From the NCBI RefSeq assembly GCF_058153355.1, contig NZ_CM177019.1: a stretch of 64,000 bases of DNA. One strand, written 5' to 3'. A program made the position numbers and the translations under genes. Below are positions 29,455-64,000 of this stretch, one piece after another (within the stretch, counting starts at the first letter, position 1; every line of letters starts with the position of its first letter). Under the pieces are notes generated by a model. It worked only from the letters and a program-made list of their open reading frames with translations, was not told the DNA's origin and did not search any database.

Positions 29455-29530
29455 TGGCTCCTCTGACTGGACTCGAACCAGTGACATACGGATTAACAGT
29501 CCGCCGTTCTACCGACTGAACTACAGAGGA
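29455..29530 (-). tRNA. asnV: tRNA-Asn (GUU)
   Basis: 76-nt exact match to the E. coli tRNA-Asn sequence, with anticodon loop CUGUUAA and 3' CCA encoded. Confidence 0.97.
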
Positions 29531-29856
29531 ATCGTGTGAACGGGGCGCATATTAATGGCAGTGCATGGTGATGTCAAAGGGTGAAATGCATTTTTTTGTT
29601 TGTTTGCTGCCAATTTCAACAAAGTGGTGAGCTTTCAATCTTATTGGGTAATGAACCATCGTGGTGCATACCCTCCTTTTATAGGGCAGGTGAATGCGAC
29701 TGCAGATAAAAAGAGCCAATGACGAATCTATCATAATCTCTTATTTGACAGTTGGTTAGCTTGCGCATCAACGCCAAAATAGAACTGGCAAGCATCTTGC
29801 ATTCTGGTTGTAAGTAATGGCGGCACTTGGGCCGACTCTTAAAAACCGGAGGCAAC

Positions 29857-30774
29857 ATGAACTTCAGACGCCTGAAATACTTCGTAAAAATTGTAGATAT
29901 TGGTAGCCTGACCCAGGCTGCTGAAGTATTGCATATCGCACAACCAGCGCTCAGCCAGCAGGTTGCCACACTGGAAGGTGAGTTTAATCAACAACTTTTG
30001 ATTCGCACAAAACGGGGCGTTACGCCAACTGACGCCGGAAAAATTCTCTATACCCATGCGCGGGCCATTTTACGTCAGTGTGAGCAGGCCCAACTGGCGG
30101 TGCATAACGTTGGTCAGGCATTATCGGGGCAAGTCTCGATTGGCTTTGCGCCAGGAACCGCTGCGTCATCCATCACCATGCCCTTATTACAGGCGGTTCG
30201 CGCTGAATTCCCGGAGGTCGTTATCTATCTTCATGAAAATAGCGGTGCAGTGCTTAACGAAAAACTGATAAATCACCAACTCGATATGGCGGTGATTTAT
30301 GAGCATTCCCCTGTGGCTGGTGTATCCAGTCAGGCTTTACTGAAAGAAGATCTTTTCCTGGTAGGGACTCAAGATTGTCCGGGGCAAAGCGTTGATGTTA
30401 ATGCTATTGCGCAAATGAACCTCTTTCTTCCCAGTGATTACAGTGCTGTTAGACTTCGTGTTGATGAGGCTTTTTCCCTACGGCGACTCACGGCAAAAGT
30501 CATTGGTGAAATTGAGTCTATTGCCACGCTTACCGCAGCGATTGCCAGCGGCATGGGCGTTGCAGTATTACCCGAATCGGCCGCGCGTTCGTTATGTGGC
30601 GCAGTAAACGGGTGGATGTCACGCATTACCACACCTTCCATGAGTCTCTCTTTGTCATTAAATTTACCCGCCAGAGCGAACTTATCACCACAGGCACAGG
30701 CAGTGAAAGAGTTGTTAATGTCAGTGATGAGTTCTCCAGTGATGGAAAAAAGGCAGTGGCAATTGGTGAGCTAA
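29857..30774 (+). CDS. nac: LysR-type nitrogen assimilation regulator Nac
   Basis: 305-aa LysR-family protein with N-terminal HTH; GGAGG SD; recalled Nac sequence and K-12 synteny. Confidence 0.9.
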   Translation: MNFRRLKYFVKIVDIGSLTQAAEVLHIAQPALSQQVATLEGEFNQQLLIRTKRGVTPTDAGKILYTHARAILRQCEQAQLAVHNVGQALSGQVSIGFAPGTAASSITMPLLQAVRAEFPEVVIYLHENSGAVLNEKLINHQLDMAVIYEHSPVAGVSSQALLKEDLFLVGTQDCPGQSVDVNAIAQMNLFLPSDYSAVRLRVDEAFSLRRLTAKVIGEIESIATLTAAIASGMGVAVLPESAARSLCGAVNGWMSRITTPSMSLSLSLNLPARANLSPQAQAVKELLMSVMSSPVMEKRQWQLVS

Positions 30775-30875
30775 GCGTTATATCGGGATGGAATAAGATG
30801 CGGGTTTTTATTATTTGTTATGCCGGGCATTAGACTTTAACAATAACGGAAAATCTGAACTGCCCGGAGTTTACC

Positions 30876-31826
30876 GTGAATTTCCAACAACTAAAGATAA
30901 TCCGCGAGGCTGCACGTCAGGATTACAACCTGACAGAGGTTGCGAATATGCTTTTTACCTCACAGTCCGGCGTCAGCCGTCATATTCGGGAACTGGAGGA
31001 TGAACTTGGCATCGAAATATTTGTTCGACGAGGTAAGCGACTGCTGGGCATGACTGAACCGGGCAAAGCATTACTGGTCATTGCAGAACGTATTCTGAAT
31101 GAAGCCAGTAATGTTCGTCGGCTTGCAGACCTGTTTACCAACGATACGTCTGGCGTTCTCACTATTGCAACGACGCATACTCAGGCACGTTATAGTTTGC
31201 CAGAGGTCATTAAATCTTTTCGCGAACTTTTCCCGGAGGTTCGGCTCGAGCTAATCCAGGGGACGCCACAGGAAATTGCGACGTTGTTGCATAATGGTGA
31301 AGCTGATATTGGTATCGCCAGCGAGCGTTTGAGTAATGACCCGCAGCTCGTCGCCTTCCCGTGGTTTCGTTGGCACCATAGTTTGCTTGTTCCACTCGAT
31401 CATCCCTTGACGCAAATTACACCATTGACGCTGGAATCAATAGCGAAGTGGCCGTTAATCACTTACCGACAGGGGATTACGGGGCGCTCACGTATTGATG
31501 ACGCATTTGCCCGCAAAGGTTTGCTGGCAGATATTGTATTAAGTGCGCAGGATTCTGATGTCATTAAAACCTATGTTGCTCTTGGGCTTGGGATCGGAAT
31601 AGTTGCCGAACAATCCAGCGGTGAACAAGAGGAAAAGAATTTAATCCGCCTGGATACGCGGCATCTTTTTGATGCTAATACTGTCTGGTTGGGACTGAAG
31701 CGAGGACAACTTCAGCGTAACTATGTCTGGCGCTTTCTGGAACTTTGTAATGCAGGGCTTTCAGTTGAGGATATCAAGCGGCAGGTGATGGAAAACAGTG
31801 AAGAGGAAATTGATTATCAGATATAG
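30876..31826 (+). CDS. cbl: LysR-type regulator Cbl (CysB-like)
   Basis: 316-aa LysR-family protein; recalled Cbl sequence and synteny. Confidence 0.9.
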   Translation: MNFQQLKIIREAARQDYNLTEVANMLFTSQSGVSRHIRELEDELGIEIFVRRGKRLLGMTEPGKALLVIAERILNEASNVRRLADLFTNDTSGVLTIATTHTQARYSLPEVIKSFRELFPEVRLELIQGTPQEIATLLHNGEADIGIASERLSNDPQLVAFPWFRWHHSLLVPLDHPLTQITPLTLESIAKWPLITYRQGITGRSRIDDAFARKGLLADIVLSAQDSDVIKTYVALGLGIGIVAEQSSGEQEEKNLIRLDTRHLFDANTVWLGLKRGQLQRNYVWRFLELCNAGLSVEDIKRQVMENSEEEIDYQI

Positions 31827-31827
31827 C

Positions 31828-31856
31828 AAAAAGCCCGCTATAAAAGCGGGCTTTTC
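31828..31856. terminator. bidirectional rho-independent terminator between cbl and tRNA-Asn
   Basis: Hairpin AGCCCGC-TATAAA-GCGGGCT followed by TTTT. Confidence 0.8.
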
Positions 31857-31863
31857 AGAAATT

Positions 31864-31939
31864 TGGCTCCTCTGACTGGACTCGAACCAGTGACATACGG
31901 ATTAACAGTCCGCCGTTCTACCGACTGAACTACAGAGGA
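31864..31939 (-). tRNA. asnU: tRNA-Asn (GUU)
   Basis: 76-nt sequence identical to the other tRNA-Asn copies. Confidence 0.97.
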
Positions 31940-32099
31940 ATCGCTGTTGAGGCACATCTTAACGGCGAAAAATCTTTTGTCAAACCCGATTTTTAATTTT
32001 CCCAACTGTTTGCCGTTTCTATCAACAGTTTGTTGCATTTGCAGACAATTTGTTGGCGAAAATCTTTGCAGCTTTGCTGATTCTCCCTCATTATTTGAA

Positions 32100-33587
32100 A
32101 TGTGGTTTCACTTTCTGCAATTAAGGTCGGCTTTGAATATCTCCTCTGCTTTACGCCAGGTTGTTCACGGCACTCGCTGGCACGCTAAACGCAAGAGCTA
32201 CAAAGTGTTGTTCTGGCGCGAGATAACCCCGCTTGCTGTTCCTATCTTCATGGAGAATGCCTGTGTCCTGTTGATGGGGGTTCTGAGCACTTTTCTGGTC
32301 AGCTGGCTGGGAAAAGATGCGATGGCCGGCGTGGGATTGGCGGACAGCTTCAATATGGTCATTATGGCTTTTTTTGCTGCTATCGATCTTGGTACTACTG
32401 TCGTTGTGGCATTTAGTCTCGGTAAGCGGGATCGACGACGAGCGAGGGTGGCGACGCGGCAGTCATTGGTGATCATGACGTTGTTTGCCGTACTGTTGGC
32501 AACGCTTATTCATCATTTTGGCGAGCAAATTATTGATTTCGTCGCGGGTGATGCCACGACAGAAGTTAAAGCACTGGCGTTGACTTATCTGGAGCTGACG
32601 GTACTCAGTTATCCAGCAGCTGCCATCACTTTGATTGGTAGCGGGGCACTTCGTGGTGCAGGGAATACGAAAATACCGCTACTGATTAACGGTAGCCTGA
32701 ATATTCTTAATATTATTATTAGCGGCATATTGATTTACGGCCTTTTCTCCTGGCTGGGACTGGGATTTGTCGGGGCTGGGTTGGGGTTAACCATTTCTCG
32801 TTATATTGGCGCAGTGGCAATTTTGTGGGTGCTGGCGATTGGTTTTAATCCTGCGCTAAGGATTTCGTTAAAGAGCTATTTTAAACCGCTGAATTTTAGC
32901 ATTATCTGGGAAGTCATGGGGATTGGTATTCCCGCGAGTGTCGAATCAGTGTTATTTACCAGTGGTCGGTTATTAACCCAAATGTTCGTTGCCGGGATGG
33001 GGACCAGTGTTATTGCCGGAAATTTTATCGCGTTTTCAATTGCGGCTCTTATCAACTTACCCGGAAGTGCGCTCGGCTCTGCTTCTACGATCATTACAGG
33101 CCGAAGGTTGGGTGTAGGACAGATAGCGCAAGCAGAGATTCAGTTGCGGCATGTGTTCTGGCTTTCCACTCTTGGATTAACGGCCATCGCCTGGCTAACG
33201 GCTCCCTTTGCCGGGGTTATGGCATCGTTTTACACCCAGGATCCACAGGTTAAACATGTCGTTGTGATTCTGATTTGGCTAAATGCTTTATTTATGCCTA
33301 TTTGGTCTGCCTCATGGGTGCTACCCGCTGGATTTAAGGGTGCTCGCGATGCACGTTACGCCATGTGGGTTTCTATGTTGAGCATGTGGGGTTGCCGGGT
33401 TGTAGTCGGTTATGTGCTGGGAATCATGCTTGGCTGGGGTGTGGTTGGTGTCTGGATGGGAATGTTTGCCGACTGGGCTGTGCGGGCCGTGCTGTTTTAC
33501 TGGCGCATGGTTACTGGACGTTGGCTGTGGAAATACCCTAGACCTGAGCCGCAAAAGTGTGAAAAAAAGCCAGTTGTGTCGGAATAA
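32100..33587 (+). CDS. yeeO: MATE-family efflux transporter YeeO
   Basis: 495-aa polytopic membrane protein; start set at MWFHFLQ because the longer track ORF overlaps the tRNA gene. Confidence 0.85.
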   Translation: MWFHFLQLRSALNISSALRQVVHGTRWHAKRKSYKVLFWREITPLAVPIFMENACVLLMGVLSTFLVSWLGKDAMAGVGLADSFNMVIMAFFAAIDLGTTVVVAFSLGKRDRRRARVATRQSLVIMTLFAVLLATLIHHFGEQIIDFVAGDATTEVKALALTYLELTVLSYPAAAITLIGSGALRGAGNTKIPLLINGSLNILNIIISGILIYGLFSWLGLGFVGAGLGLTISRYIGAVAILWVLAIGFNPALRISLKSYFKPLNFSIIWEVMGIGIPASVESVLFTSGRLLTQMFVAGMGTSVIAGNFIAFSIAALINLPGSALGSASTIITGRRLGVGQIAQAEIQLRHVFWLSTLGLTAIAWLTAPFAGVMASFYTQDPQVKHVVVILIWLNALFMPIWSASWVLPAGFKGARDARYAMWVSMLSMWGCRVVVGYVLGIMLGWGVVGVWMGMFADWAVRAVLFYWRMVTGRWLWKYPRPEPQKCEKKPVVSE

Positions 33588-33687
33588 ACGACAAAGTGCA
33601 GATTATTTCAGCAAACGATTTCAAATTTAAAAAACAGGCTTTGACATTGTGGATGGGCGTCGCTAATATTCGCCTCGTTCTCACGAT

Positions 33688-33763
33688 TCCTCTGTAGTTC
33701 AGTCGGTAGAACGGCGGACTGTTAATCCGTATGTCACTGGTTCGAGTCCAGTCAGAGGAGCCA
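33688..33763 (+). tRNA. asnW: tRNA-Asn (GUU)
   Basis: 76-nt TCCTCTGTAGTTCAGTCGGTAGAACGGCGGACTGTTAATCCGTATGTCACTGGTTCGAGTCCAGTCAGAGGAGCCA. Confidence 0.97.
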
Positions 33764-48200: not shown

Positions 48201-48216
48201 TGGCTCCTCTGACTGG
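48201..48216 (-). other. 16-nt remnant of the tRNA-Asn 3' end (asnT position): direct repeat marking an island junction
   Basis: TGGCTCCTCTGACTGG is identical to the 3' end of the three intact tRNA-Asn genes, then diverges; it lies 312 bp upstream of yeeJ, where asnT sits in K-12. Confidence 0.8.
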
Positions 48217-48367: not shown

Positions 48368-50122
48368 CTACGGTGCTGGTATTATAGTCTCTGCTCCAAA
48401 CCAATTTCCAAGTGTTGTCAGTGCCGCAGGTGACAAAGCTTGGGTGAAAAGGATCGCAAGGCGCTTTTGGGGTCTGGAACAAGCGACGTAAAACAAATTT
48501 CGGTTTCGTTCAAATGAGTCTTGCTTATCGACTGGAATCGTTTGGGCTCCAGCGAATTCCAACATTTCTCCGAAGTTATACTGGTTCCACCCACGCCCAA
48601 CAACAACCAGGACATTCTCAAATTCAGCACCTTTCACACCATGTTTAGTTTCGAATGGAGAATATCCATCAAGATAACGGCGAAGTGATCTGACCTCCGA
48701 ATAGGGAATATTTTTCAGCTTTTCAAGTTCTTTTAATCTTCGGGGCATTTCAACATCAGCCGTTCTGTCAAAATGGAGTAACTCCTGCTCAAATTATTCA
48801 ACCTTATCTGGAAGTCTTGGCTTCCGTTGAGCACGGATGAACTCAATTACGTCGCCAATTGTACCAGTTTCGCGGAGAGCAAGAAGTTGCGTCATTACAT
48901 TGTGCCAACTCACCTTATCTGAATGTCTACGCAACAGTGGTGTAATACCGCCAAGCGCATTAAACATCTCTCCATACTTACGAGCGGTAAAGGCATCACA
49001 GGCGGGTTCCAGTTTGTCTACAAAAAAGGCTATATGTTCATGTTCCTTTTTCGTGAAGGATTCATTGTATTTAAACGCTGCCACTATATTTGAATAGCCC
49101 TGCTGATTGGCTAAAAGTCGATGGGTCAACATGAGAATTTTGGTGTGATTGGGAGAAAAGTCCCAACCATCCTGCTCCAACGTTGTTTTAACTCGTTCCA
49201 GAGTAGCCTGGCCTTCACATAATGGTAAATCACCACTCCAGTGCACGCCTTTTTGACGAACTCCTTGCCAATTGTTTGTATGGAAAACGCGTACTAAACC
49301 TGTAGCTTCGGGATCTTTAACACACTGCGGTAGCTCAGGTCTCATACGATTAAGGGCATCAACAATTATCTTGTCCGAACGAAAATTGGCTTCTTTACCT
49401 ATTTCAACCACGTCCTGATGTTCCAGCTTTCCACATCCACCACCATAGATTTTTTGCCAATGGTCGCCGAAAAAACCAAATAAAGGTGCTCTAGCTTGTC
49501 CAAGAAAATGCCGTTTAATTGCCTCAATCCAGTTTTTATCAGTGTCCTGGTACTCATCGACCAGAATGATTGGAAAGCGTTCTGCAATCACTCTACGGAA
49601 TTTTTCGTGCTCCATGAGTGAGACAGTTAAAGAAAGAACATCGTCATGATGAAGAGTTATACGATGGTCGCGAATAGAGCGATGTCCAAGATTATACTCA
49701 ACACTACGATTCCCAAGGCTTCCACCAACTTCTTCGAGCTTTTCTGTCCATGTTGGCATTGTCTCAATCAGTTCTCTCAACGGTTTTTGAAAGCTGCTTA
49801 TTAACGACCAACAGAACGCATGATTGGTATCACAAAAAACGATGGGGCTTCGATCTGTTCGCGCGACGATTTCATCCTTCGCCACGTTAGTAAAGGTGAT
49901 GCAGGCAATTTGCTGGCTACGTTTTTCAAATAAATCCTTATTTCGCTCAATCAAGAATCGAAGTGCCTTAATAAGGGAATACGTTTTACCCGCACCAGCG
50001 CCAGCTTCCAGCCGGAAGCTTCGTCCTTCACTGAGGCAAGCATACATAGATTCCAAAGCTCGCTGGCTAGCAGCTTCGGCGGGCGAATGGATCTCAGACA
50101 TCAGCGCTGGCTCCTTCTTCAA
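48368..50122 (-). pseudogene. UvrD/PcrA-like SF1 helicase (GajB-like), interrupted by one in-frame TAA
   Basis: Motif I AGAGAGKT and motif II ILVDEYQDTD in the 442-aa ORF; after the TAA at 48794..48796 the same frame continues into the C-terminal helicase domain (YVACSRPQKRLAIL). Confidence 0.7.
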
Positions 50123-52166
50123 TACTAGTTGTGGCTTCTACAACTTGCGCCAATACTGGATCTTGTGTCATAAGCTCATTGCTGCCAGCTAACCAGCGGA
50201 TTCCATCGACTATGTATTTGGGGGCGTTCCATTCTGTCTCTGTAATCGCGTATTTCAATGCAAATTCTGATTTTTTCCACTCAGACGCTTTATCACGGGC
50301 TTCTATTTCCAGTTCCTGAGAATTTCTCCCTACCAGCCCGAATAAAGCCGAATTTGCAAGGATAAATGCATCTTCGAATGTGCGTCCGCAGGGGCCATCT
50401 GTCACTTCTGCACATTGATAGGCAATACGATTTCCATTACGAGCTTTATCATCGTCACTCCTGGCAATCAAACCAGCTAATGTGAAAGGGGTATCTTCAG
50501 AGAACCATGCTTTCAAACAAGCATTACTGGAATATGTACCAAGATGAACAGCACATGCCTGACCTCCTGCTCTTTGGACTGCGTCCAGATCTGTTATGAT
50601 CAGACTCTGAAGCTCAAGAAACGCTAATAACTCGAAGAACAAATGAGCGTAAGCACCGCCGACTTCCATCACCGTTGCGTACTGGCTCGACAGCTTCGGT
50701 CTCTCTGGTTCGGCTGATTCTAGTTTTTTGATGATGACGGGAAGCAATAATCGCTCGCTTAACCCCTCGACGAGAATCGCTTTATCTGCGAAAAACAGAT
50801 CACAACGTGTCAACGTCATGTATTGATGAAGGAATTTTTTATCTTCAATTAGAATATGATTCAGCCCTTTACGCAGATCTTTAATTTTGGTTTTTCGGAC
50901 ACCTTCCTGAGTCCCCTGTGCTGGAGCCCCCAGAAAATAGCGAATACTCTCGAAACCAGCCGCATTGGCAATGTGAGACGAGTGTGTAGACACGACAAAT
51001 TGTACAGGCCAGGGTCTCCTGTCCTCAGTGCCATCCACCAGTTGTTGTGCAATTTTGGCAAGTTGACGAATAAAAACCTCCTGCATTTGTGGATGCAGAT
51101 GGGCTTCTGGTTCTTCAATGAATATCAGGTGTACACCCGGCTCAGTAACTTCAGCACAAAATGCTTTATAGAAACCAGCTAATTGCAAGAGAATAAATAT
51201 CAGATTACGTGTACCAAGACCGTTATATGACTCCGGTAATGCGATTCCGCTATAACCTGAATAGCGAACTTTCGTGAAGTTTGATAGCAACTTGCTAACA
51301 TCGAGCAATGTTTCAGTATGTAACTCCTGTCCTCCCAATCCTGGGTATCCAAAAGTTTCTAGAGCCGGAATCAGACTGTTGAGCTGGTTTCCGAAGTTTG
51401 TGTCAATTTGAGTCTGAATGTCCTGAACTGCACCTTTCAATGCATCAGCAATTTGTTTATCAGCAGCTCCCGCAGATGCCGAAGAGGCTGTTGCGAAAAG
51501 ATTTTCAACCGTTTTAGCCAGTACATCGGATTCTCGGGACGTCACATCATCAAGTCCTCGCTGAGCGTTGATAAAGCCCGATTTGACCAGACCGCGCAAT
51601 GCACTAGGTGGTAACTCGCGACGATTATCAGGATCGTTGGGATCTTCAGCCCATATTTTCACACAGAAATTATTAGGGATACGTTCTCGCAATATACGGA
51701 GGAAAGCGAGGCGGTCTTCTCTAGAAAGTGGCATTTCAGTCTGACTTTCGAGAAATTGTGTCAGATGGCCATCTTTCAATTCGTATCGGACTACTACCTG
51801 CGCTTCAGAACACGCGGGATCCAAATCGATAACAAAGGGACTCAATGGACCTAATTGAGGTTGTGCAGGGTCGTACTGGAATTTCAGTCGAAGTTCAATG
51901 GCGGGAATAAGTTCTCGAACGAGATGATCTTCCATGCCTTCCTTAAGTGCTTCCAGAACATCACAAAAACGGTCGTAGCAGGAACTGGAAAAGTCTTCAA
52001 GTTGGAAAGTAGCACTACCATCTGCTAAGAATCTGCGTATTATTTCTGAGAGTGATGTTTTTCCGCTGTTGTTTCGTCCAACAATGACGGTCGTCTGTTC
52101 CTCCAATACAAGCTCTGCATCAGCTAAAAGACGGAAGTTTTTAATTTCGACCTGATGAATGTGCAT
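50094..52166 (-). CDS. OLD-family ATP-dependent endonuclease (ABC-type ATPase + Toprim; GajA-like)
   Basis: Walker A GRNNSGKT, Walker B/D-loop LIFIEEPEAHLHP, Toprim motifs ILVEGLSE and ITDLD; its end overlaps the helicase start by 29 bp. Confidence 0.8.
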   Translation of the reverse strand: MHIHQVEIKNFRLLADAELVLEEQTTVIVGRNNSGKTSLSEIIRRFLADGSATFQLEDFSSSCYDRFCDVLEALKEGMEDHLVRELIPAIELRLKFQYDPAQPQLGPLSPFVIDLDPACSEAQVVVRYELKDGHLTQFLESQTEMPLSREDRLAFLRILRERIPNNFCVKIWAEDPNDPDNRRELPPSALRGLVKSGFINAQRGLDDVTSRESDVLAKTVENLFATASSASAGAADKQIADALKGAVQDIQTQIDTNFGNQLNSLIPALETFGYPGLGGQELHTETLLDVSKLLSNFTKVRYSGYSGIALPESYNGLGTRNLIFILLQLAGFYKAFCAEVTEPGVHLIFIEEPEAHLHPQMQEVFIRQLAKIAQQLVDGTEDRRPWPVQFVVSTHSSHIANAAGFESIRYFLGAPAQGTQEGVRKTKIKDLRKGLNHILIEDKKFLHQYMTLTRCDLFFADKAILVEGLSERLLLPVIIKKLESAEPERPKLSSQYATVMEVGGAYAHLFFELLAFLELQSLIITDLDAVQRAGGQACAVHLGTYSSNACLKAWFSEDTPFTLAGLIARSDDDKARNGNRIAYQCAEVTDGPCGRTFEDAFILANSALFGLVGRNSQELEIEARDKASEWKKSEFALKYAITETEWNAPKYIVDGIRWLAGSNELMTQDPVLAQVVEATTSIEEGASADV

Positions 52167-54843: not shown

Positions 54844-56667
54844 GTGTGTCACGAAGGAGTACTTATGGCAACAATGTGAAAATTGCAGCATAAGTTATCC
54901 ATGCTCTGAGGTGGGTGGAGGTGGGCCCTCCGGTCAGGGTTTACAGGAGCACTGACCAAACGACCCGGTGCTGCTTCATTCTAAGGAATGAGGTGGTGAG
55001 CGACTCGGGAAAAGGCAGAGATCTACTGTCACGTGGGGTTCGGGAAGCTGAACGAAAGTAAACTGTCCGATGAAGCATCGAAATCTTAGATGATGTCAAA
55101 ATGGGGCCGTACAGCCGTCCCCTGATAAGCGCAGAAGACACCTGCTTACTGACTGCGCGGCATCCGGTGTGAAGGCAGCAGGATCCCGGGCCAGACCATC
55201 TCAGGGAACGTGAGAACCTGTTTCCGGCACGTATCGGGAAACAGGGGCGGACCCATTCGTAGTAGTGATGAAAGATCTGTAATGGGTCTGGAGCGAAGGG
55301 ATGGGGATCACATTCATTGCAGAAGACACAACCCAAAAGGGGATGACGTAACTGATGCAACGAAAATCATTTGAAATACCAAAAGCACTGGTCTGGGCAT
55401 CATATCTGGATGTGCGTCGCAACAAGGGAGCCCCCGGATGCGACGGGCAGACTTTGAAAATGTTCGACCAGCAACGTGATGGCAATCTATACAAGATCTG
55501 GAACCGGCTATGTTCGGGAACATGGTTTCCGCCACCAGTGCTGGAAAAACGGATCCCGAAGTCGAATGGCAAGGAACGCATTCTGGGGATCCCAACAGTA
55601 TCCGATCGAATTGCTCAGGGAGCGATAAAACTTTTCATGGAAGAAAAGCTTGACCCGATTTTCCATGCTGATTCATATGGTTACCGACCAGGCAAATCAG
55701 CTCATGACGCTCTGAAACAATGTGCCATCCGGTGCTGGCGTTATAGCTGGATACTGGAAGTGGACATCAGTGCGTTTTTCGACCATGTGAGACATGATCT
55801 GGTGCTCAAAGCTCTGGAACACCACGGGATGCCTAAATGGGTCATCCTGTACTGTCGACGCTGGATGGAAGCGCCAATGCAGAGTTGTGAAAATGGAGAA
55901 TTAATAACCCGAACACGAGGCACTCCGCAGGGCGGGGTCATTAGTCCACTACTTGCTAACTTGTTCCTTCACTATGCATTTGATTTGTGGATGGAAAGAG
56001 AATATCGGGGGGTACCGTTTGAGAGGTACGCTGACGATATTGTAGTACATTGTTCACGAATGAGTGATGCAACAAGGCTGAAGAACAGGTTATCGGAGCG
56101 CTTCTCGGAAGTCGGGCTGGTCCTGAATGCAGGGAAAACGAATATCGCCTACATTGACACGTTTAAAAGGAGAAACGTCGCAACGAGTTTCACCTTTCTC
56201 GGATATGACTTCAAAGTGCGTACGCTGAAGAATTTCAAAGGCGAACTGTACCGAAAATGCATGCCGGGTGCGTCAAATGCAGCAATGCGCAAAATAACAG
56301 AAACAATCAAGAAGTGGCGTATACATCGCTCAACAGCTGAGAGTTTGCTGGATTTTGCGAGGCGCTACAATGCGATAGTGAGAGGCTGGATCGAGTACTA
56401 CGGAAAGTTCTGGTCCAGAAATTTCAACTATCGACTGTGGAGTGCAATGCAGTCACGTCTGCTCAAGTGGATGCAGTCTAAATACAGACTTTCGAACCGG
56501 AAGGCTCAGCGAAAGCTGACGCTGGTAAGGAAGGAGTATCCGAAGCTATTTGTTCACTGGTATTTACTACGTGCATCAAATGAGTGATCAAGAGCCGTAT
56601 GACGCGAGAGTGTCACGTACGGTTCCGTGAGCAGCCGGGGAGTGAAATTCTCTCCGGCTGACTCGAC
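54844..56667 (+). mobile_element. bacterial group II intron (1824 bp) in sense orientation within IS66 tnpC
   Basis: Starts GTGTG immediately after the exon 1 homology and ends ...AC before exon 2; domain V-like GAGCCGTATG...CACGTACGGTTC at 56592..56625; contains the RT/maturase ORF. Confidence 0.75.
55355..56587 (+). CDS. group II intron reverse transcriptase/maturase (no endonuclease domain evident)
   Basis: RT motifs including GTPQGGVISPLLANLFL and YADDIVVH, plus a maturase X domain (RGWIEYYG); 410 aa. Confidence 0.85.
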   Translation: MQRKSFEIPKALVWASYLDVRRNKGAPGCDGQTLKMFDQQRDGNLYKIWNRLCSGTWFPPPVLEKRIPKSNGKERILGIPTVSDRIAQGAIKLFMEEKLDPIFHADSYGYRPGKSAHDALKQCAIRCWRYSWILEVDISAFFDHVRHDLVLKALEHHGMPKWVILYCRRWMEAPMQSCENGELITRTRGTPQGGVISPLLANLFLHYAFDLWMEREYRGVPFERYADDIVVHCSRMSDATRLKNRLSERFSEVGLVLNAGKTNIAYIDTFKRRNVATSFTFLGYDFKVRTLKNFKGELYRKCMPGASNAAMRKITETIKKWRIHRSTAESLLDFARRYNAIVRGWIEYYGKFWSRNFNYRLWSAMQSRLLKWMQSKYRLSNRKAQRKLTLVRKEYPKLFVHWYLLRASNE

Positions 56668-59572: not shown

Positions 59573-60075
59573 ATTTCACCTCATCCGTGTCAGGTTATCG
59601 AAGAGTAGAATTTCAGCAAATTCATGTTACACCGAACGGGTATCATTTCAATGTTTAATAATAATTTCCCCTTATAAAACAACGCTTATAATACATTCGC
59701 AGGTCAGATGATTTATCGGTGTGTTATTTGTTTGAATTTGGTGTTGTGGTTTTCTTTTTTTAACAATCTTCGATCTTCCTTCCACGACTTCCCCTTGCCG
59801 TTTTCAACCGAAAGCGGTATCTTTCACTTGCACCTGCAAAATCAGGTGCCGGGATTGGAACCCCGAAATGTAACCATACTGGCGACACGTGACGCGTCTG
59901 CGTCTTTTTTTATGTCGCGCGCTTAGCTACACCAAAATTATGGTGGGCTGGGCGGGGGCACCGTAAGGTGCGCCGGTTCCAGTATGGCCGGTAGTTCCAA
60001 CCTCGTTCAGTCCACCACCCATGAGATTGGAACCTCTGGTGGTGGTTTTCAAACCACATACTGGAGGCTGCCTTT

Positions 60076-60543
60076 ATGGCTACGATCCCCACTCAGACAC
60101 ACCCGTTACTTGCTGTTCCCTTCAATGCTGCCACAGATTTTACCGTACTGGCAGACCACTGTGAAAACTTCGCCGAAACCCTGATCGAAAGCGACGACCC
60201 GGTGCTGCGGCTGGCGCTTTGCGGGCGGCTTGCCGCCTGTCTGACTCTGCTGCAACCCACGCTGAACGAACCCATCCCGTCCCATCTGACTGACAGCCTG
60301 ACCGTTGATGCTCTACCTGCCGATATGCCCCGATTTGTCCCCGACGCTGAATTACTTTGTGACTACTCACTGACGCTGGCGCAACTTCTTATCGGGCAGG
60401 GGATGCTGCCAAAAATGGAGCAGACGATAACTGGCTTATTATGTGAACTGGTCTGGTATTTTGCCGCTGAAATGAAAGCCCCGCGTTGGCTGCGTACTGC
60501 CGGTGGCGTGAAGTTTATCGATGGTGTGGAGGCCAAAGCATGA
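60076..60543 (+). CDS. hypothetical protein (155 aa)
   Basis: GGAGG SD; stop overlaps the ATG of the Ner-like gene (ATGATG/TGA). Confidence 0.55.
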   Translation: MATIPTQTHPLLAVPFNAATDFTVLADHCENFAETLIESDDPVLRLALCGRLAACLTLLQPTLNEPIPSHLTDSLTVDALPADMPRFVPDAELLCDYSLTLAQLLIGQGMLPKMEQTITGLLCELVWYFAAEMKAPRWLRTAGGVKFIDGVEAKA

Positions 60544-60746
60544 TGCAGTCTGACTGGCATCCTGCCGACATTATCGCCGGGCTGAAAAAACGTGGCACTT
60601 CGCTGTCAGCGCTTTCGCGTCAGGCTGGGCTGGCGTCCTCCACGCTGGCTAATGCGCTTACCCGCCGCTGGCCCAAAGGTGAAAGATTGATTGCCGAAGC
60701 GTTAGATGTTGCGCCTGAGAACATCTGGCCTTCGCGCTATCGCTGA
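60540..60746 (+). CDS. Ner/Nlp-like DNA-binding regulator
   Basis: 68-aa product; WHPADIIAGL...STLANAL...WPKGE...IWPSRY matches the Ner/Nlp family from recall. Confidence 0.75.
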   Translation: MMQSDWHPADIIAGLKKRGTSLSALSRQAGLASSTLANALTRRWPKGERLIAEALDVAPENIWPSRYR

Positions 60747-61093
60747 TGTCCTTCCGGCGCAGCCACGATACGGAAGCTGCGCCGCATTTCGTTTATCTGA
60801 TTTGTCATAATCCTTTGAACCGCAAAAACAGTTTTCTATTATCGGCCTTCTTACCACGAACTAAGCTCCCGCCTGTACAAAATGCTTCATGACCTGAAAG
60901 AAGCGCCTGATGTATCAGGATGGTCGCCGTTTTACCGGCAATGCCGCCTTTGAAAACTGCCGGATCTGTCCTTCGATGGATTAAGGCTTTCTTCATACTT
61001 TATTACGCTAAGGAAATCACAATGAATCTGATGAATAATTGTGCATCGCCTGCCGTAGATGTTATATTAAAATATAATATTCGGAGGTGCTCT

Positions 61094-61351
61094 ATGTATA
61101 CAACTCGCCTGAAAAAGGTCGGCGGATCCATCATGCTGGCGGTTCCCCCCGCCGTGCTGAAAACGCTGGAGCTGTCGACGGACAGCGAAGTGGGTATGAC
61201 CATTGATAATGGCTGCCTGATTATTGAACCCCAGAAACGGCCCCGTTATTCGCTTGAGGAGCTGTTGGCGCAGTGCGATCCGCACGCAGAAATGAGCGAA
61301 GAGGATCGGGAATGGATTGATGCGCCTGCGGTGGGCAAGGAGATCCTGTAA
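61094..61351 (+). CDS. pemI: PemI-like antitoxin (AbrB/MazE fold)
   Basis: GGAGGTG SD; 85-aa product closely resembling recalled PemI (TTRLK.VGGS.ML.VPPA...SL.ELLAQCDP). Confidence 0.85.
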   Translation: MYTTRLKKVGGSIMLAVPPAVLKTLELSTDSEVGMTIDNGCLIIEPQKRPRYSLEELLAQCDPHAEMSEEDREWIDAPAVGKEIL

Positions 61352-61684
61352 ATGGACAGAGGGGAAATCTGGCTGGTTTCACTGGATCCGATTGCAGGTC
61401 ACGAGCAAAGCGGAAAACGTCCGGTGCTTATCGTATCGAAGGCATCGTTTAACAAGCTGACCCGGCTACCCGTTGTTGTTCCCGTTACCAGCGGTGGAAA
61501 CTTCGCCCGTGCAGCCGGTTTTACCGTCTCACTGGACGGTGCGGGAACAAAAACAACGGGCGTTATTCGCTGCGACCAGCCCAGAACCATTGATATGGGA
61601 GCCCGGAGCGGAAAGCGACTGGAACGTATACCCGATGCTGTCGTGAATGAAGTGCTGGCCCGACTGGAGGCCATTCTGAGCTGA
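61352..61684 (+). CDS. pemK: PemK-like mRNA interferase toxin (MazF/PemK family)
   Basis: 110-aa product starting immediately after the pemI stop; RGEIWLVSLDP...GKRPVLIVS pattern. Confidence 0.85.
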   Translation: MDRGEIWLVSLDPIAGHEQSGKRPVLIVSKASFNKLTRLPVVVPVTSGGNFARAAGFTVSLDGAGTKTTGVIRCDQPRTIDMGARSGKRLERIPDAVVNEVLARLEAILS

Positions 61685-61702
61685 TGCTTTTTATGTAAAC
61701 TG

Positions 61703-61740
61703 AATGATGGCGCTGTCATATACAGCGCCATCATTTTTTA
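61703..61740 (+). terminator. rho-independent terminator after pemK
   Basis: 14-bp stem AATGATGGCGCTGT / ACAGCGCCATCATT with 5-nt loop, followed by TTTTTTA. Confidence 0.8.
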
Positions 61741-62122
61741 TAACGACAAGTGATTAAAAAATCCTTTTGCAGGTAAAAACAGTTTTTCCTTTCTCCGCCA
61801 GCGGTACTGGCATAGTCTCCCCCTTGCCCTATGCTGTCGTTGACAGCGCCACGCTTCACAACCTGAAAGAAGCGCCTGTTATCAGGAGGTTGAGCCCTTT
61901 ACCGGTGCAGACCTTTGCAAACACCGGGTCGCAGAACATCGCGACGGAGGCCAGAGTTTTAACACGATACGTCCTTTTACTGCGCCAGCCTGCTGGTCTG
62001 AATCTGCCCCGCGCCGGAATTTTCCCGGTCAGCTTATATTTGCTGACACCCTCAGCACCTTTTACCTCACGGGCTGCGGCATGCATTTGCCGCAAGGCAT
62101 TTGCTGACGCGTGCCCGTAAAA

Positions 62123-62244
62123 CTGCACCAGACGGTAAATTTTCAGACGCTGCACCAGACCCGTGCGTCACTTTAACCGCGCAGAGCGGGAAAGTGACGC
62201 ACGCAATCCCTTTCGACCTGCACCAGAAAACTCAACTGCGCCAG
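62123..62244 (+). repeat. cluster of 4 CTGCACCAG(AC) motifs upstream of the recombinase gene
   Basis: Copies at 62123, 62150, 62218 and (CTGCGCCAG) 62236; a 12-bp-arm palindrome GTGCGTCACTTT / AAAGTGACGCAC at 62163..62202 lies between them. Confidence 0.7.
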
Positions 62245-62535
62245 CTCACGGCTGGAGTCTGACACCGCCTTTTCAGGCCATTTACCTATAAGGAGAACAT
62301 GAATCGATACCGAGGCGGATCCGGACGATCCGGGGGATAACCCGCGCAAGCGGGCGGCTGCTCAGAGAGCACAACCGAAGCCCCACCACACCTCAACGGC
62401 TGCCGCCCCGGCGCTCAGGTATCGTTCGCAGCCCCGACAAAAAAACAGGGGCTATCGGCCTGTGCGCCGGGGAAAGCTGTATCAGTGTTGGTTTTTTGGG
62501 GGATGAGTTTGCGGCAATCATGAAAAGGGGAATGT

Positions 62536-63423
62536 ATGGGGATACTGGAGCAGGAAATGACGCGACTGGCGCAGCAGGCGGGTGGCAGCTACAAAACTGT
62601 GGATGACCGCATCAGGCTGGCGCAGCGGTTTTGTGAGCGTCTGGTTCTGGCGCAGAACGTACAAATCCGCCGGGTGGAGCAGCTTAAGGCGCGGCATATT
62701 GAAGGCTATGTTCGTGAACGGCTGGCGCAGGGCATCACAAAGCGTTCCCTGCAAAATGAGATGGCGGCGGTGCGCTGCATTCTGAAACAGGCCGGGCGTG
62801 ACAGGCTGGCGCAGAGTGAGCGGCTGAATAACCGCTCGCTGGGATTGTCCGGAGCATCCCGTAACGGGACGAAGCTGGCTATTACACTGGAGCACTATCG
62901 TGATGTGCTGGAGACCGCCCGCGTAAAAGATCCGGGGCTGGCGGCAGCGCTGGAGCTCTCAAGGTTGATGGGATTACGTTCGCAGGAGGCGGTGCAGAGT
63001 GTACAGTCGCTGAAAACGTGGATACAGGCGCTGGAGCGTGGTGAGTCCCGGTTAACCGTGGTGTTCGGCACCAAAGGCGGACGGCCCCGCGAGACGATTA
63101 TTCTTGATGCTGGCGTAGTTAAAAAAGCGCTGGATAATGCGCTGGTGGTGGCTGAGGATCGTCACGGCAGGCTGATAGATAAGCCCGATCTGAGAAGCGC
63201 GATGAAATACTGGCACAGCCAGGCGTCGGGTCTTGGTTTAACTGGCGCATATTCCCCGCACTCGTTGCGCTATGCCTGGGCGCAGGATGCTATTCGTCAT
63301 TATCTGGCGCAGGGATTTTGTGAGAAGGAAGCGCTGGCGATGACGGCGATGGATTTGGGTCACGGCGACGGGCGCGGGCGGTATGTGGCGCAGGTTTACG
63401 GGCGAAAGGGGGATGCTGATTGA
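62536..63423 (+). CDS. tyrosine recombinase (phage-integrase family, 295 aa)
   Basis: Box I-like TKGGRPRETII and box II-like HSLRYAWA...LGHGDGRGRYVAQVY (catalytic Tyr); no N-terminal arm-binding domain evident. Confidence 0.75.
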   Translation: MGILEQEMTRLAQQAGGSYKTVDDRIRLAQRFCERLVLAQNVQIRRVEQLKARHIEGYVRERLAQGITKRSLQNEMAAVRCILKQAGRDRLAQSERLNNRSLGLSGASRNGTKLAITLEHYRDVLETARVKDPGLAAALELSRLMGLRSQEAVQSVQSLKTWIQALERGESRLTVVFGTKGGRPRETIILDAGVVKKALDNALVVAEDRHGRLIDKPDLRSAMKYWHSQASGLGLTGAYSPHSLRYAWAQDAIRHYLAQGFCEKEALAMTAMDLGHGDGRGRYVAQVYGRKGDAD

Positions 63424-63466
63424 TAGCTTCAGACTTGCAATATGATGTTATTCATCGTTTTCCGTA

Positions 63467-63562
63467 CAAAATTATTTGCCTCAAATAATTTTGGGTGATT
63501 TCCTATTAATCCCGGGTTATTCATCGTTATTCACCGAAAAAATTTCTACGTAGAAATTTTTT
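63467..63562. promoter_or_regulatory. two perfect palindromic operator-like sites (12-bp arms with 3-bp spacer; 13-bp arms, no spacer) with associated direct repeats
   Basis: CAAAATTATTTG-CCT-CAAATAATTTTG at 63467..63493 and AAAAAATTTCTAC/GTAGAAATTTTTT at 63537..63562; TTATTCATCGTT direct repeat at 63449 and 63518. Confidence 0.6.
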
Positions 63563-63618
63563 GTTCGATTTCCTCTCAATAAAAATGCTTCTGAACGGTA
63601 TGGCCTATTAACAGGCCT

Positions 63619-63881
63619 CTGGTGCAGTATTACGGTATTTTACTGATGATTGCGCCAGCAAAAGGAAAAGGCCAAATAATGGTAAAGGGCGACTAAGGGT
63701 AACAGCGCCAGACCGGAAAGGGCCAAAAGGCTAAAAGGCCTTAACACTGGCGCAGTTTGATGTTTATCCAATAATATCTGGCGCAGTCCTGACATAGACA
63801 GGTGACAGCGGACTGGTGCAGTAAATGGTGACATTGAACTGGTGCGGATACGATGTATTGGGAAATCAGTTTCTGGTGCAG
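63619..63881 (+). repeat. array of 6 direct CTGG(T/C)GCAG motifs downstream of the recombinase gene, inverted relative to the upstream cluster
   Basis: Copies at 63619, 63747, 63778, 63813, 63839 (CTGGTGCGG) and 63873; spacings 26-35 bp for the last five. Confidence 0.7.
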
Positions 63882-63906: not shown

Positions 63907-64000
63907 ATTATTCACTGTGAATAATTTTCGTTATTTGCCTATTGATTCATAATATATTGATAGGTTTTCGTACAAAATTATTCTACGTCGAATAATTTTG
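63907..64000. promoter_or_regulatory. further palindromic sites at the window edge
   Basis: ATTATTCAC-T-GTGAATAAT at 63907..63925 and CAAAATTATTC-TACGTC-GAATAATTTTG at 63973..64000; the half-site resembles the 63467 palindrome. Confidence 0.5.

Follow-up and report, generated by a model that had tools for sequence, protein, structure and literature searches.

A candidate mobilization module with a tyrosine-recombinase-fold enzyme and polar 9-mer arrays in a small defence island

The stretch of DNA analysed here (the window) comprises 64,000 nucleotides of contig NZ_CM177019.1 (RefSeq assembly GCF_058153355.1). Towards its 3' end lies a gene coding for a 295-amino-acid protein with the tyrosine recombinase fold, preceded by a cassette made up of a STAXI motif, a hairpin and an EFASI RNA motif, and accompanied by arrays of a 9-bp repeat. 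A preliminary description had reported the recombinase gene together with four copies of the repeat 300-400 bp upstream of it and six copies of the reverse complement, fairly regularly spaced, downstream. These elements were recovered: the open reading frame (ORF) at 62536-63423 matched Integrase_1 and Phage_int_SAM_2, the four upstream copies started at 62123, 62150, 62218 and 62236 (the fourth with G for A), and the downstream copies, five of them exact and one with a mismatch, were located 196-458 bp after the stop codon.

Anatomy of the module

The repeat was defined as the 9-mer CTGGYGCAG and counted on both strands; on the plus strand, copies reading CTGCRCCAG are referred to as F and those reading CTGGYGCAG as R. 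The features of the module, from upstream to downstream, are the following:

61832..61902, plus strand: partial STAXI motif (RF01728), 25.5 bits, under the gathering score of 40.5
61980..61988, plus strand: distal upstream F copy, CTGCGCCAG (motif scan)
62123..62131, plus strand: F copy 1, CTGCACCAG, within the conserved block CGTAAAACTGCACCAGA
62150..62158, plus strand: F copy 2, CTGCACCAG, 3 nt from the 5' side of the hairpin
62162..62203, plus strand: universal hairpin, CGTGCGTCACTTT-N16-AAAGTGACGCACG, 13-bp stem, between F copies 2 and 3; proposed core of an origin of transfer (oriT)
62218..62244, plus strand: F copies 3 and 4, at 62218 (CTGCACCAG) and 62236 (CTGCGCCAG), 3' of the hairpin
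62299..62428, plus strand: EFASI RNA motif (RF02957), 119.2 bits against a gathering score of 51.2, model positions 1-133
62406..62497, plus strand: stem-loop (62406-62419 with 62459-62472) followed by a T-run (62492-62497), before the ribosome-binding site (repeat scan and reading)
62536..63423, plus strand: gene for the tyrosine-recombinase-fold protein, 295 amino acids, candidate MOB_M-type relaxase (Integrase_1 and Phage_int_SAM_2)
62566..62814, plus strand: five in-gene R copies, CTGGCGCAG, at 62566, 62617, 62647, 62722 and 62806, each a run of Leu-Ala-Gln codons
63304-63312, plus strand: sixth in-gene R copy, an exact 9-mer
63449..63580, no strand assigned: two AT-rich units of about 62 bp with the perfect palindromes CAAAATTATTTG/CAAATAATTTTG and AAAAAATTTCTAC/GTAGAAATTTTTT (repeat scan)
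63619..63881, plus strand: downstream R array of six copies, at 63619, 63747, 63778, 63813, 63839 and 63873 (motif scan)
63660..63741, plus strand: purine-rich element of about 80 nt, AAAAGGAAAAGGCC...TAAGGGTAACAGCGCCAGACCGGAAAGGGCC...AAAAGGC, inside the downstream array
63907..64000, no strand assigned: additional AT-rich palindromic units in inverted orientation to 63537-63581, truncated where the window stops (repeat scan)

The protein matched Integrase_1 (3e-60) and Phage_int_SAM_2 (8e-36) in Pfam; NCBIfam gave a weak XerC match only and no specific model, and a PDB sequence search with the protein gave no match. Residues R148, K180, H242, R245, H276 and Y288 were invariant or at least 90% conserved among 39 sequences reaching down to 32% identity. 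The AlphaFold2 model (predicted local distance difference test, pLDDT, of 93.9) showed a two-domain C-clamp composed of a core-binding and a catalytic domain, and it aligned over its full length to Xer, lambda Int 75-356, XerH, IntI, Tn1549 Int and Cre, with template modelling (TM) scores of 0.55-0.63; MrpR and YopR of SPbeta were distant fold matches. By its catalytic residue set and two-domain fold, the protein is a member of the tyrosine recombinase superfamily. The Integrase_1/Phage_int_SAM_2 pair is called only an integrase in the one paper found that discusses it.

The protein is 50% identical over 291 amino acids (3e-103) to WP_033567157.1 of SGI-4 (pSGI4), one of the seeds of the MOB_M profile (Ares-Arroyo et al., bioRxiv 10.64898/2026.01.13.699239). 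According to this preprint, MOB_M groups tyrosine-recombinase-like relaxases and is the commonest relaxase class in chromosomes; 96% of MOB_M genes adjoin an integrase, over half of them lie in islands without a mating apparatus, and the oriT of SGI-4, localised by experiment, is matched by an oriT family that the authors defined from regions upstream of MOB_M genes. SGI-4, an integrative conjugative element (ICE) of monophasic Salmonella Typhimurium ST34, resembles the window in the order STAXI, GTCACTT hairpin, EFASI and gene. It differs in being a self-transmissible element of 80 kb with its own type IV secretion system, a TraI-like gene and no CTGGYGCAG arrays. The window element, in contrast, is a small island that lacks such machinery, no transfer genes having been seen among the island ORFs checked.

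The 67 loci in which the hairpin was found represent all clades (50-93% protein identity) and have it at -325 to -372 relative to the start codon; SGI-4 has it too. The lower stem of the hairpin, GCGTCACTT/AAGTGACGC, is invariant, and variation in the upper stem and the loop is compensatory, to the point that the upper stem is wholly different between lineages with pairing preserved; the 51 distinct versions present in the 67 loci all fold to stems of 14-20 bp. This palindromic centre of variable length argues against a recombination crossover site, and by analogy the structure would fit a hairpin or cruciform of the type found at origins of transfer. EFASI lies between the hairpin and the gene and occupies the same position in relatives and in SGI-4. 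According to its Rfam entry, which lists no known function, EFASI follows STAXI at a distance of a few hundred bases and precedes integrase genes. The STAXI copy of the window misses the threshold, and relatives score 41-139 bits at the same position; a full STAXI motif occurs at the corresponding position in relatives, in SGI-4 and in small plasmids. The stem-loop and T-run at 62406-62497 may be a terminator or attenuator of an EFASI transcript, for which no convincing conserved sigma-70 promoter was found. A minus-strand ORF at 61856-62155, annotated in LF82, has stops and frameshifts in relatives and was discarded as a gene.

A search with the upstream region of SGI-4 showed that the hairpin segment of about 100 bp recurs in 78 Escherichia coli genomes. 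The matches included two E. coli plasmids, pGF60-E (5,318 bp) and p3 (3,140 bp), in which Rep is the sole encoded protein and each of which carries a complete STAXI, hairpin and EFASI; a homologue of the recombinase was absent from both (tblastn, E up to 10). The cassette is thus portable without the gene, and its presence on minimal plasmids resembles an oriT-only hitch-hiker, as would be expected of an oriT. These two plasmids are candidate oriT-only plasmids dependent on SGI-4-type elements. The intervening hairpin, the 9-mer arrays and the occurrence on plasmids that lack the gene are all omitted from the Rfam descriptions of EFASI and STAXI.

Downstream of the gene, the purine-rich element was present in 30 distinct versions with a core nearly invariant across genera, and it was more conserved than the adjacent protein. 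No conserved RNA structure was detected in it (RNAalifold covariation term -0.3, one compensatory pair). A hydrophobic minus-strand ORF over this element (63640-63834) was rejected, neither its frame nor its ends being conserved. The AT-rich units, with perfect palindromic arms of 12-13 bp, form inverted blocks around the downstream array and are confined to a sub-lineage, in islands with a tRNA-Asn-type P4 integrase.

Polarity of the 9-mer arrays and selection on the in-gene copies

Exact CTGGYGCAG matches numbered 24 in the window, against 1.04 expected (standard deviation 1.07, maximum 4, in 100 dinucleotide shuffles), and 53 against 15.4 expected when one mismatch was permitted; the motif thus exceeded chance in a composition-matched shuffle, the lack of such an excess being one of the findings that the preliminary description had named as speaking against it. 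Sixteen of the 24 exact copies were concentrated in 61980-63881, as five F copies upstream and 11 R copies, six in the ORF and five downstream. The downstream copy at 63839 (CTGGTGCGG) is the one with a mismatch. The motif extends over essentially the 9-mer, with a weak preference for a following T. The best-conserved copy is F copy 1, which was nearly invariant in an alignment including sub-clades at 65-75% identity; F copies 3 and 4 were restricted to the clade nearest the window. The spacings of the downstream array are 128, 31, 35, 26 and 34 bp (around 31 bp), and relatives carry from none to six downstream R copies, with spacings that cluster at 27-35 bp and show no helical phasing. These downstream copies are retained while the intervening sequence diverges. 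Even within a terminator loop and within an inserted cassette, R copies were found with their orientation unchanged.

The orientation of the repeats flips once, between 62244 and 62545, at the EFASI motif, and the R series continues through the gene. Arrays that are inverted and bracket the gene, as first proposed, thus hold in so far as the inversion is about the gene start, and need correcting for the six R copies that lie inside the ORF. This polarity was examined in 46 loci whose protein is at least about 65% identical to that of the window, from Phytobacter, Citrobacter, Klebsiella, Kluyvera, Brenneria, Tatumella, Salmonella, Escherichia albertii and other hosts. Pooled over these related loci, the interval from -750 to -250 contained 120 F and no R copies, and that from -250 to +1750 no F and about 236 R copies; outside -750 to +1750 there was a background of 0-4 copies per 250-bp bin. 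The arrays were absent from loci at 58-64% protein identity, from SGI-4 and from the two small plasmids. Since homologues at or below 64% identity and SGI-4 do without them, the arrays are not a defining part of the system. The preliminary description had named homologues lacking any flanking repeats as the finding that would speak against it, and such homologues exist in that more distant range and in SGI-4. The polar, partly coding arrays are a clade-specific layer on the universal cassette, and one that appears undescribed.

The in-gene copies were compared in 36 related genes. Leu-Ala-Gln tripeptides were spelled CTGGCGCAG in 90 of 108 cases (83%), versus 25% predicted by codon usage, and Leu-Val-Gln tripeptides were spelled CTGGTGCAG in six of six. 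A further 13 copies of the 9-mer were out of frame, and not one copy was in F orientation. The in-gene copies occupy nine different codon positions at which other lineages have LEQ, LKQ, LAA, VAE and other tripeptides, which implies that copies were gained through amino-acid change. As read from these comparisons of sequences, the evidence from synonymous sites and amino-acid turnover indicates selection on the DNA or RNA sequence of the 9-mers. It also indicates that array orientation is set relative to the hairpin/EFASI centre.

Other origins for the copies were considered. The downstream copies were rejected as relics of a duplicated 5' end of the gene, because their spacings are not multiples of three and differ from the in-gene spacing. 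Arm sites of the P4-type integrase that adjoins such modules were also discarded, the arrays being more than 1.4 kb from the att core and across the int gene. In the E. albertii locus L046 (2875-3400), a small reverse-strand ORF is inserted between the gene and the conserved downstream element; the insertion is flanked by four CGTTACTGCGTAACG palindromes, and the 9-mers inside it are in R orientation. A canonical Chi octamer, GCTGGTGG, is present at 63142-63149, within the recombinase gene, and is oriented like the R copies; as a single occurrence, it is compatible with chance.

A probable mobilization function and its alternatives

We consider that the region is probably the transfer (mobilization) module of an integrative mobilizable element (IME) of about 17 kb, with a MOB_M-type enzyme and an oriT cassette. 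The element would extend from about 48.2 kb to just past the window end, and a P4-type integrase would have placed it in a tRNA-Asn gene. STAXI, the hairpin with the GCGTCACTT/AAGTGACGC stem (62162-62203) and EFASI (62299-62428) would form its cis-acting part, and the 295-amino-acid protein would most likely act on the hairpin region, and place its nick there, as a MOB_M-type relaxase or nicking enzyme. A presumed co-resident conjugative element would then transfer the excised island. EFASI would stand in the place of sgm-sRNA, the small RNA (sRNA) that SGI1 needs between oriT and mpsA. On either side of the hairpin/EFASI centre the 9-mers are directed outwards: those on the left surround the hairpin, and those on the right occupy the first third of the gene and the 3' untranslated region. 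We read them as accessory sites, dependent on orientation, that are probably bound by the enzyme itself; a polar nucleoprotein complex would then be assembled on them, or the module regulated through them. The enzyme is preferred as their reader because it is the sole constant partner of the arrays; the upstream genes orf155 and the SfsB-like gene do not track them, neither their presence nor their sequence following array presence.

The layout has a counterpart in the module oriT - sgm-sRNA - mpsA - mpsB of SGI1, a mobilizable island that likewise carries a gene for a tyrosine-recombinase-like enzyme. There, a GC-rich oriT of 125 bp that contains inverted repeats precedes the essential sRNA, after which comes mpsA. 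The likeness between EFASI and sgm-sRNA is one of position in the module. SGI1 differs in that MpsA has no core-binding domain, this being supplied by MpsB (SAM_4-like), whereas the window protein has a SAM_2-like domain fused to the catalytic one, and no polar repeat arrays have been reported for SGI1. With the validated tyrosine-recombinase-like relaxases TcpM (pCW3) and MobK (pIGRK), the window protein shares the catalytic tyrosine and the active-site motifs, and its putative oriT would, like theirs, lie upstream of the gene; both differ from it in lacking a core-binding domain, and the similarity to TcpM is found only at the active-site stretch.

Several points weigh against a mobilization function. 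To our knowledge, no member of the Integrase_1/SAM_2 family has been tested biochemically. The core-binding domain of the protein has no equivalent in the validated TcpM, MobK and MpsA, and a profile comparison with TcpM (hhalign) matched the HxLR...GH active-site stretch only, with a probability of 32%. The MOB_M assignment depends on the seed list of a single preprint, and the coincidence of the SGI-4 oriT with the hairpin region is one that we infer from the method of that preprint. Moreover, SGI-4 also encodes a TraI-like (MOB_H) relaxase, so that the protein could instead be an accessory factor. As to the arrays, no binding partner of the 9-mer was identified, the pooled polarity counts do not represent independent events, and the absence of arrays from the more distant homologues and from SGI-4 means that they cannot be the primary recognition sites of the family.

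The best surviving alternative, possible though unlikely, is that the protein is a genuine site-specific recombinase (an Xer-like multimer resolvase acting on the excised circle, a second integrase or an invertase), with the hairpin as crossover and the 9-mers as arm sites, which is the main idea of the preliminary description. The full two-domain fold with its core-binding domain and all catalytic residues would suit such an enzyme, and inverted arrays around a central site recall arm sites of the lambda type, or the additional sites that IntI has in attI. On small plasmids, the hairpin could serve for cer-like resolution. Against this, the invariant arms of the hairpin are 10-22 bp apart around a palindromic, compensatory centre, versus 6-8 bp in asymmetric crossovers, and a synteny sample of 78 loci from species-representative genomes contained neither a further copy of the site nor variants with an inversion or deletion. 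The islands already have a P4-type integrase, a resolution site that needs a rare enzyme borne by an ICE or IME would be of little use to a small plasmid, and the arrays are missing from half the family. Short repeats bound by a tyrosine-recombinase-fold protein away from its catalytic site are known from lambda arm-type sites and from DR1 and DR2 of integron attI. The window protein has no arm-binding domain, and its arrays extend over more than 1 kb and through coding sequence; in addition, its catalytic residues are intact, unlike those of a pure regulator, MrpR and YopR being regulators with the recombinase fold. The accessory or arm-site reading of the preliminary description is still the most economical one for the arrays themselves, tempered by the homologues that do without repeats.

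Chi and KOPS show leading-strand bias around oriC, and two further explanations take the 9-mers as a code of this kind. In the first, which we regard as rather doubtful, they would be a polar Chi/KOPS-like code for conjugative transfer at a tyrosine-recombinase-type oriT, as loading, stop or protection sites that are read in one direction on each of the two arms; if true, selection to maintain this code would have moulded even the amino-acid sequence that the gene of the enzyme specifies. In the second, which seems quite improbable, they would be polar signals for a translocating or replicating machine (comparable to Chi, KOPS or origin-proximal initiator boxes) rather than static binding sites, marking the two arms that leave an origin-like oriT/EFASI centre. 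The absolute strand polarity with a single flip point mirrors the bias around oriC, copies are tolerated in one orientation in coding sequence, terminator loops and inserted cassettes, the spacing is without helical phasing, and the motif shares CTGGTG with Chi. Yet the enrichment is limited to about -750 to +1750 and is not island-wide, most copies (CTGGCGCAG) have at least two mismatches from Chi, and the module lacks a conserved rep, primase or helicase partner; we know of no machine that reads such a motif.

That the downstream array, the purine-rich element and the AT-rich palindromes form a replication origin or partition site of the excised element, with the 9-mers as iterons, is very improbable. 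Regularly spaced short repeats do lie beside AT-rich palindromes, and related mobilizable islands such as SGI1 replicate after excision. However, no Rep or Par protein is conserved with the downstream array, the AT-rich units occur in one sub-lineage only, and the same 9-mer, short for an iteron at 9 bp, is also found in the gene and in the oriT region. Hardly credible is an absence of function, with the in-gene repeats as favoured Leu-Ala-Gln codons (CTG, GCG and CAG being preferred) and the flanking ones as chance or hitch-hiking relics in counts inflated by shared ancestry, given that 16 of the 24 window copies fall within 1.9 kb when 1.0 is expected window-wide, that no copy among about 356 has the wrong orientation, that exact spelling of Leu-Ala-Gln far exceeds prediction (83% vs 25%) with new codon positions gained through amino-acid change, and that noncoding copies are kept while their flanks diverge.

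The surrounding island and its significance

The features of the island outside the module are:

48201..48216, minus strand: 16-bp copy of the tRNA-Asn 3' end (TGGCTCCTCTGACTGG), probable distal attachment (att) repeat
60076..60746, plus strand: orf155 and an SfsB/Nlp (Ner-like) helix-turn-helix gene (SfsB, 4e-30), conserved upstream partners
about 60860-60930: second partial STAXI copy, in the repeat around pemIK
61094..61684, plus strand: pemI/pemK (MazE/ChpB-MazF-like) toxin-antitoxin cassette, an optional insertion found in some relatives only

Near-identical DNA was found, in the chromosome, in 43 of 5,426 complete E. coli genomes, and all 52 E. coli matches were chromosomal. In LF82, the gene is located in an island beside a P4-type integrase pseudogene and tRNA-Asn, and one Salmonella record contains two such islands in tandem. 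Across the 78 loci the recurrent order was orf155, the SfsB/Ner-like helix-turn-helix gene, optionally pemIK, the gene, a spacer of 0.2-1.3 kb, a convergent P4-type int and a tRNA; the tRNA targets were Asn, Phe, Leu and others, and some loci had int upstream instead. In relatives, the AT-rich units at 63907-64000 are followed by a bidirectional terminator and by a P4-type int gene, reached at its 3' end, and comparison with close relatives places the int and tRNA end of the present island, in all likelihood, just beyond base 64000.

The element is therefore a small defence island and not a plasmid remnant. The preliminary description had compared the arrays with transposon ends and with a plasmid resolution or partition region, and had taken the neighbouring pemIK as a hint of a plasmid-derived segment. 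None of these proposals was upheld: neither terminal inverted repeats nor target-site duplications were found, the arrays continue across the gene and the module is fixed beside int; no Par or Res genes are conserved nearby, a P4-type integrase and a tRNA adjoin the module in relatives and all of the E. coli matches are in chromosomes; and pemIK is an optional insertion. The pemIK cassette is flanked by two copies of a repeat of about 190 bp with a partial STAXI (60750-61000 and 61690-61960). A relative without pemIK has a single copy, and pemIK thus looks like an insertion with duplication.

Other observations concern the remainder of the island. A Gabija pair is encoded at 48794-52166, by GajA (689 amino acids, E 3e-289) followed by GajB (441 amino acids); the latter matches positions 4-435 only of a 579-position model and may be truncated. 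A reverse transcriptase of 410 amino acids (55355-56587; PADLOC RT, 8e-61) could be either a group II intron maturase or a defence-associated enzyme, and PADLOC gave no match for the neighbouring proteins of 566, 647 and 257 amino acids. At 59817-60022, Rfam matched isrK (71 bits), C4 antisense RNA (83 bits) and, at 45 bits and so narrowly under the threshold, c4-a1b1 targets. This immunity RNA set of P1/P7 type lies directly upstream of orf155 and the SfsB-like gene, also in a Salmonella relative, which suggests antisense control of the orf155/SfsB-like operon by the C4 RNA set. Outside the island, 29455-33763 contains three tRNA-Asn genes, none of them with an island, and the ORF sizes and order match nac, cbl and yeeO of LF82; the island of the window is probably at a fourth tRNA-Asn gene beyond the window end, and the LF82 copy is at the tRNA-Asn gene adjoining nac.

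The better-supported conclusion is the core identity of the locus as a member of a recently recognised kind, in which an island-borne oriT cassette is combined with a tyrosine-recombinase-like enzyme. It is one of a large cross-genus family of islands at tRNA genes, in which the sole transfer-related gene is annotated as an integrase domain-containing protein, and many defence and virulence islands are without a known transfer route. The "orphan" Rfam motifs EFASI and STAXI would gain a concrete role, tied to the hairpin, the enzyme gene and oriT-only mini-plasmids. The polar 9-mer arrays offer a tractable puzzle, with DNA-level selection in coding sequence and a perfect orientation bias around a presumed oriT. 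The result supports the proposal that tyrosine-recombinase-like relaxases are common in chromosomes.

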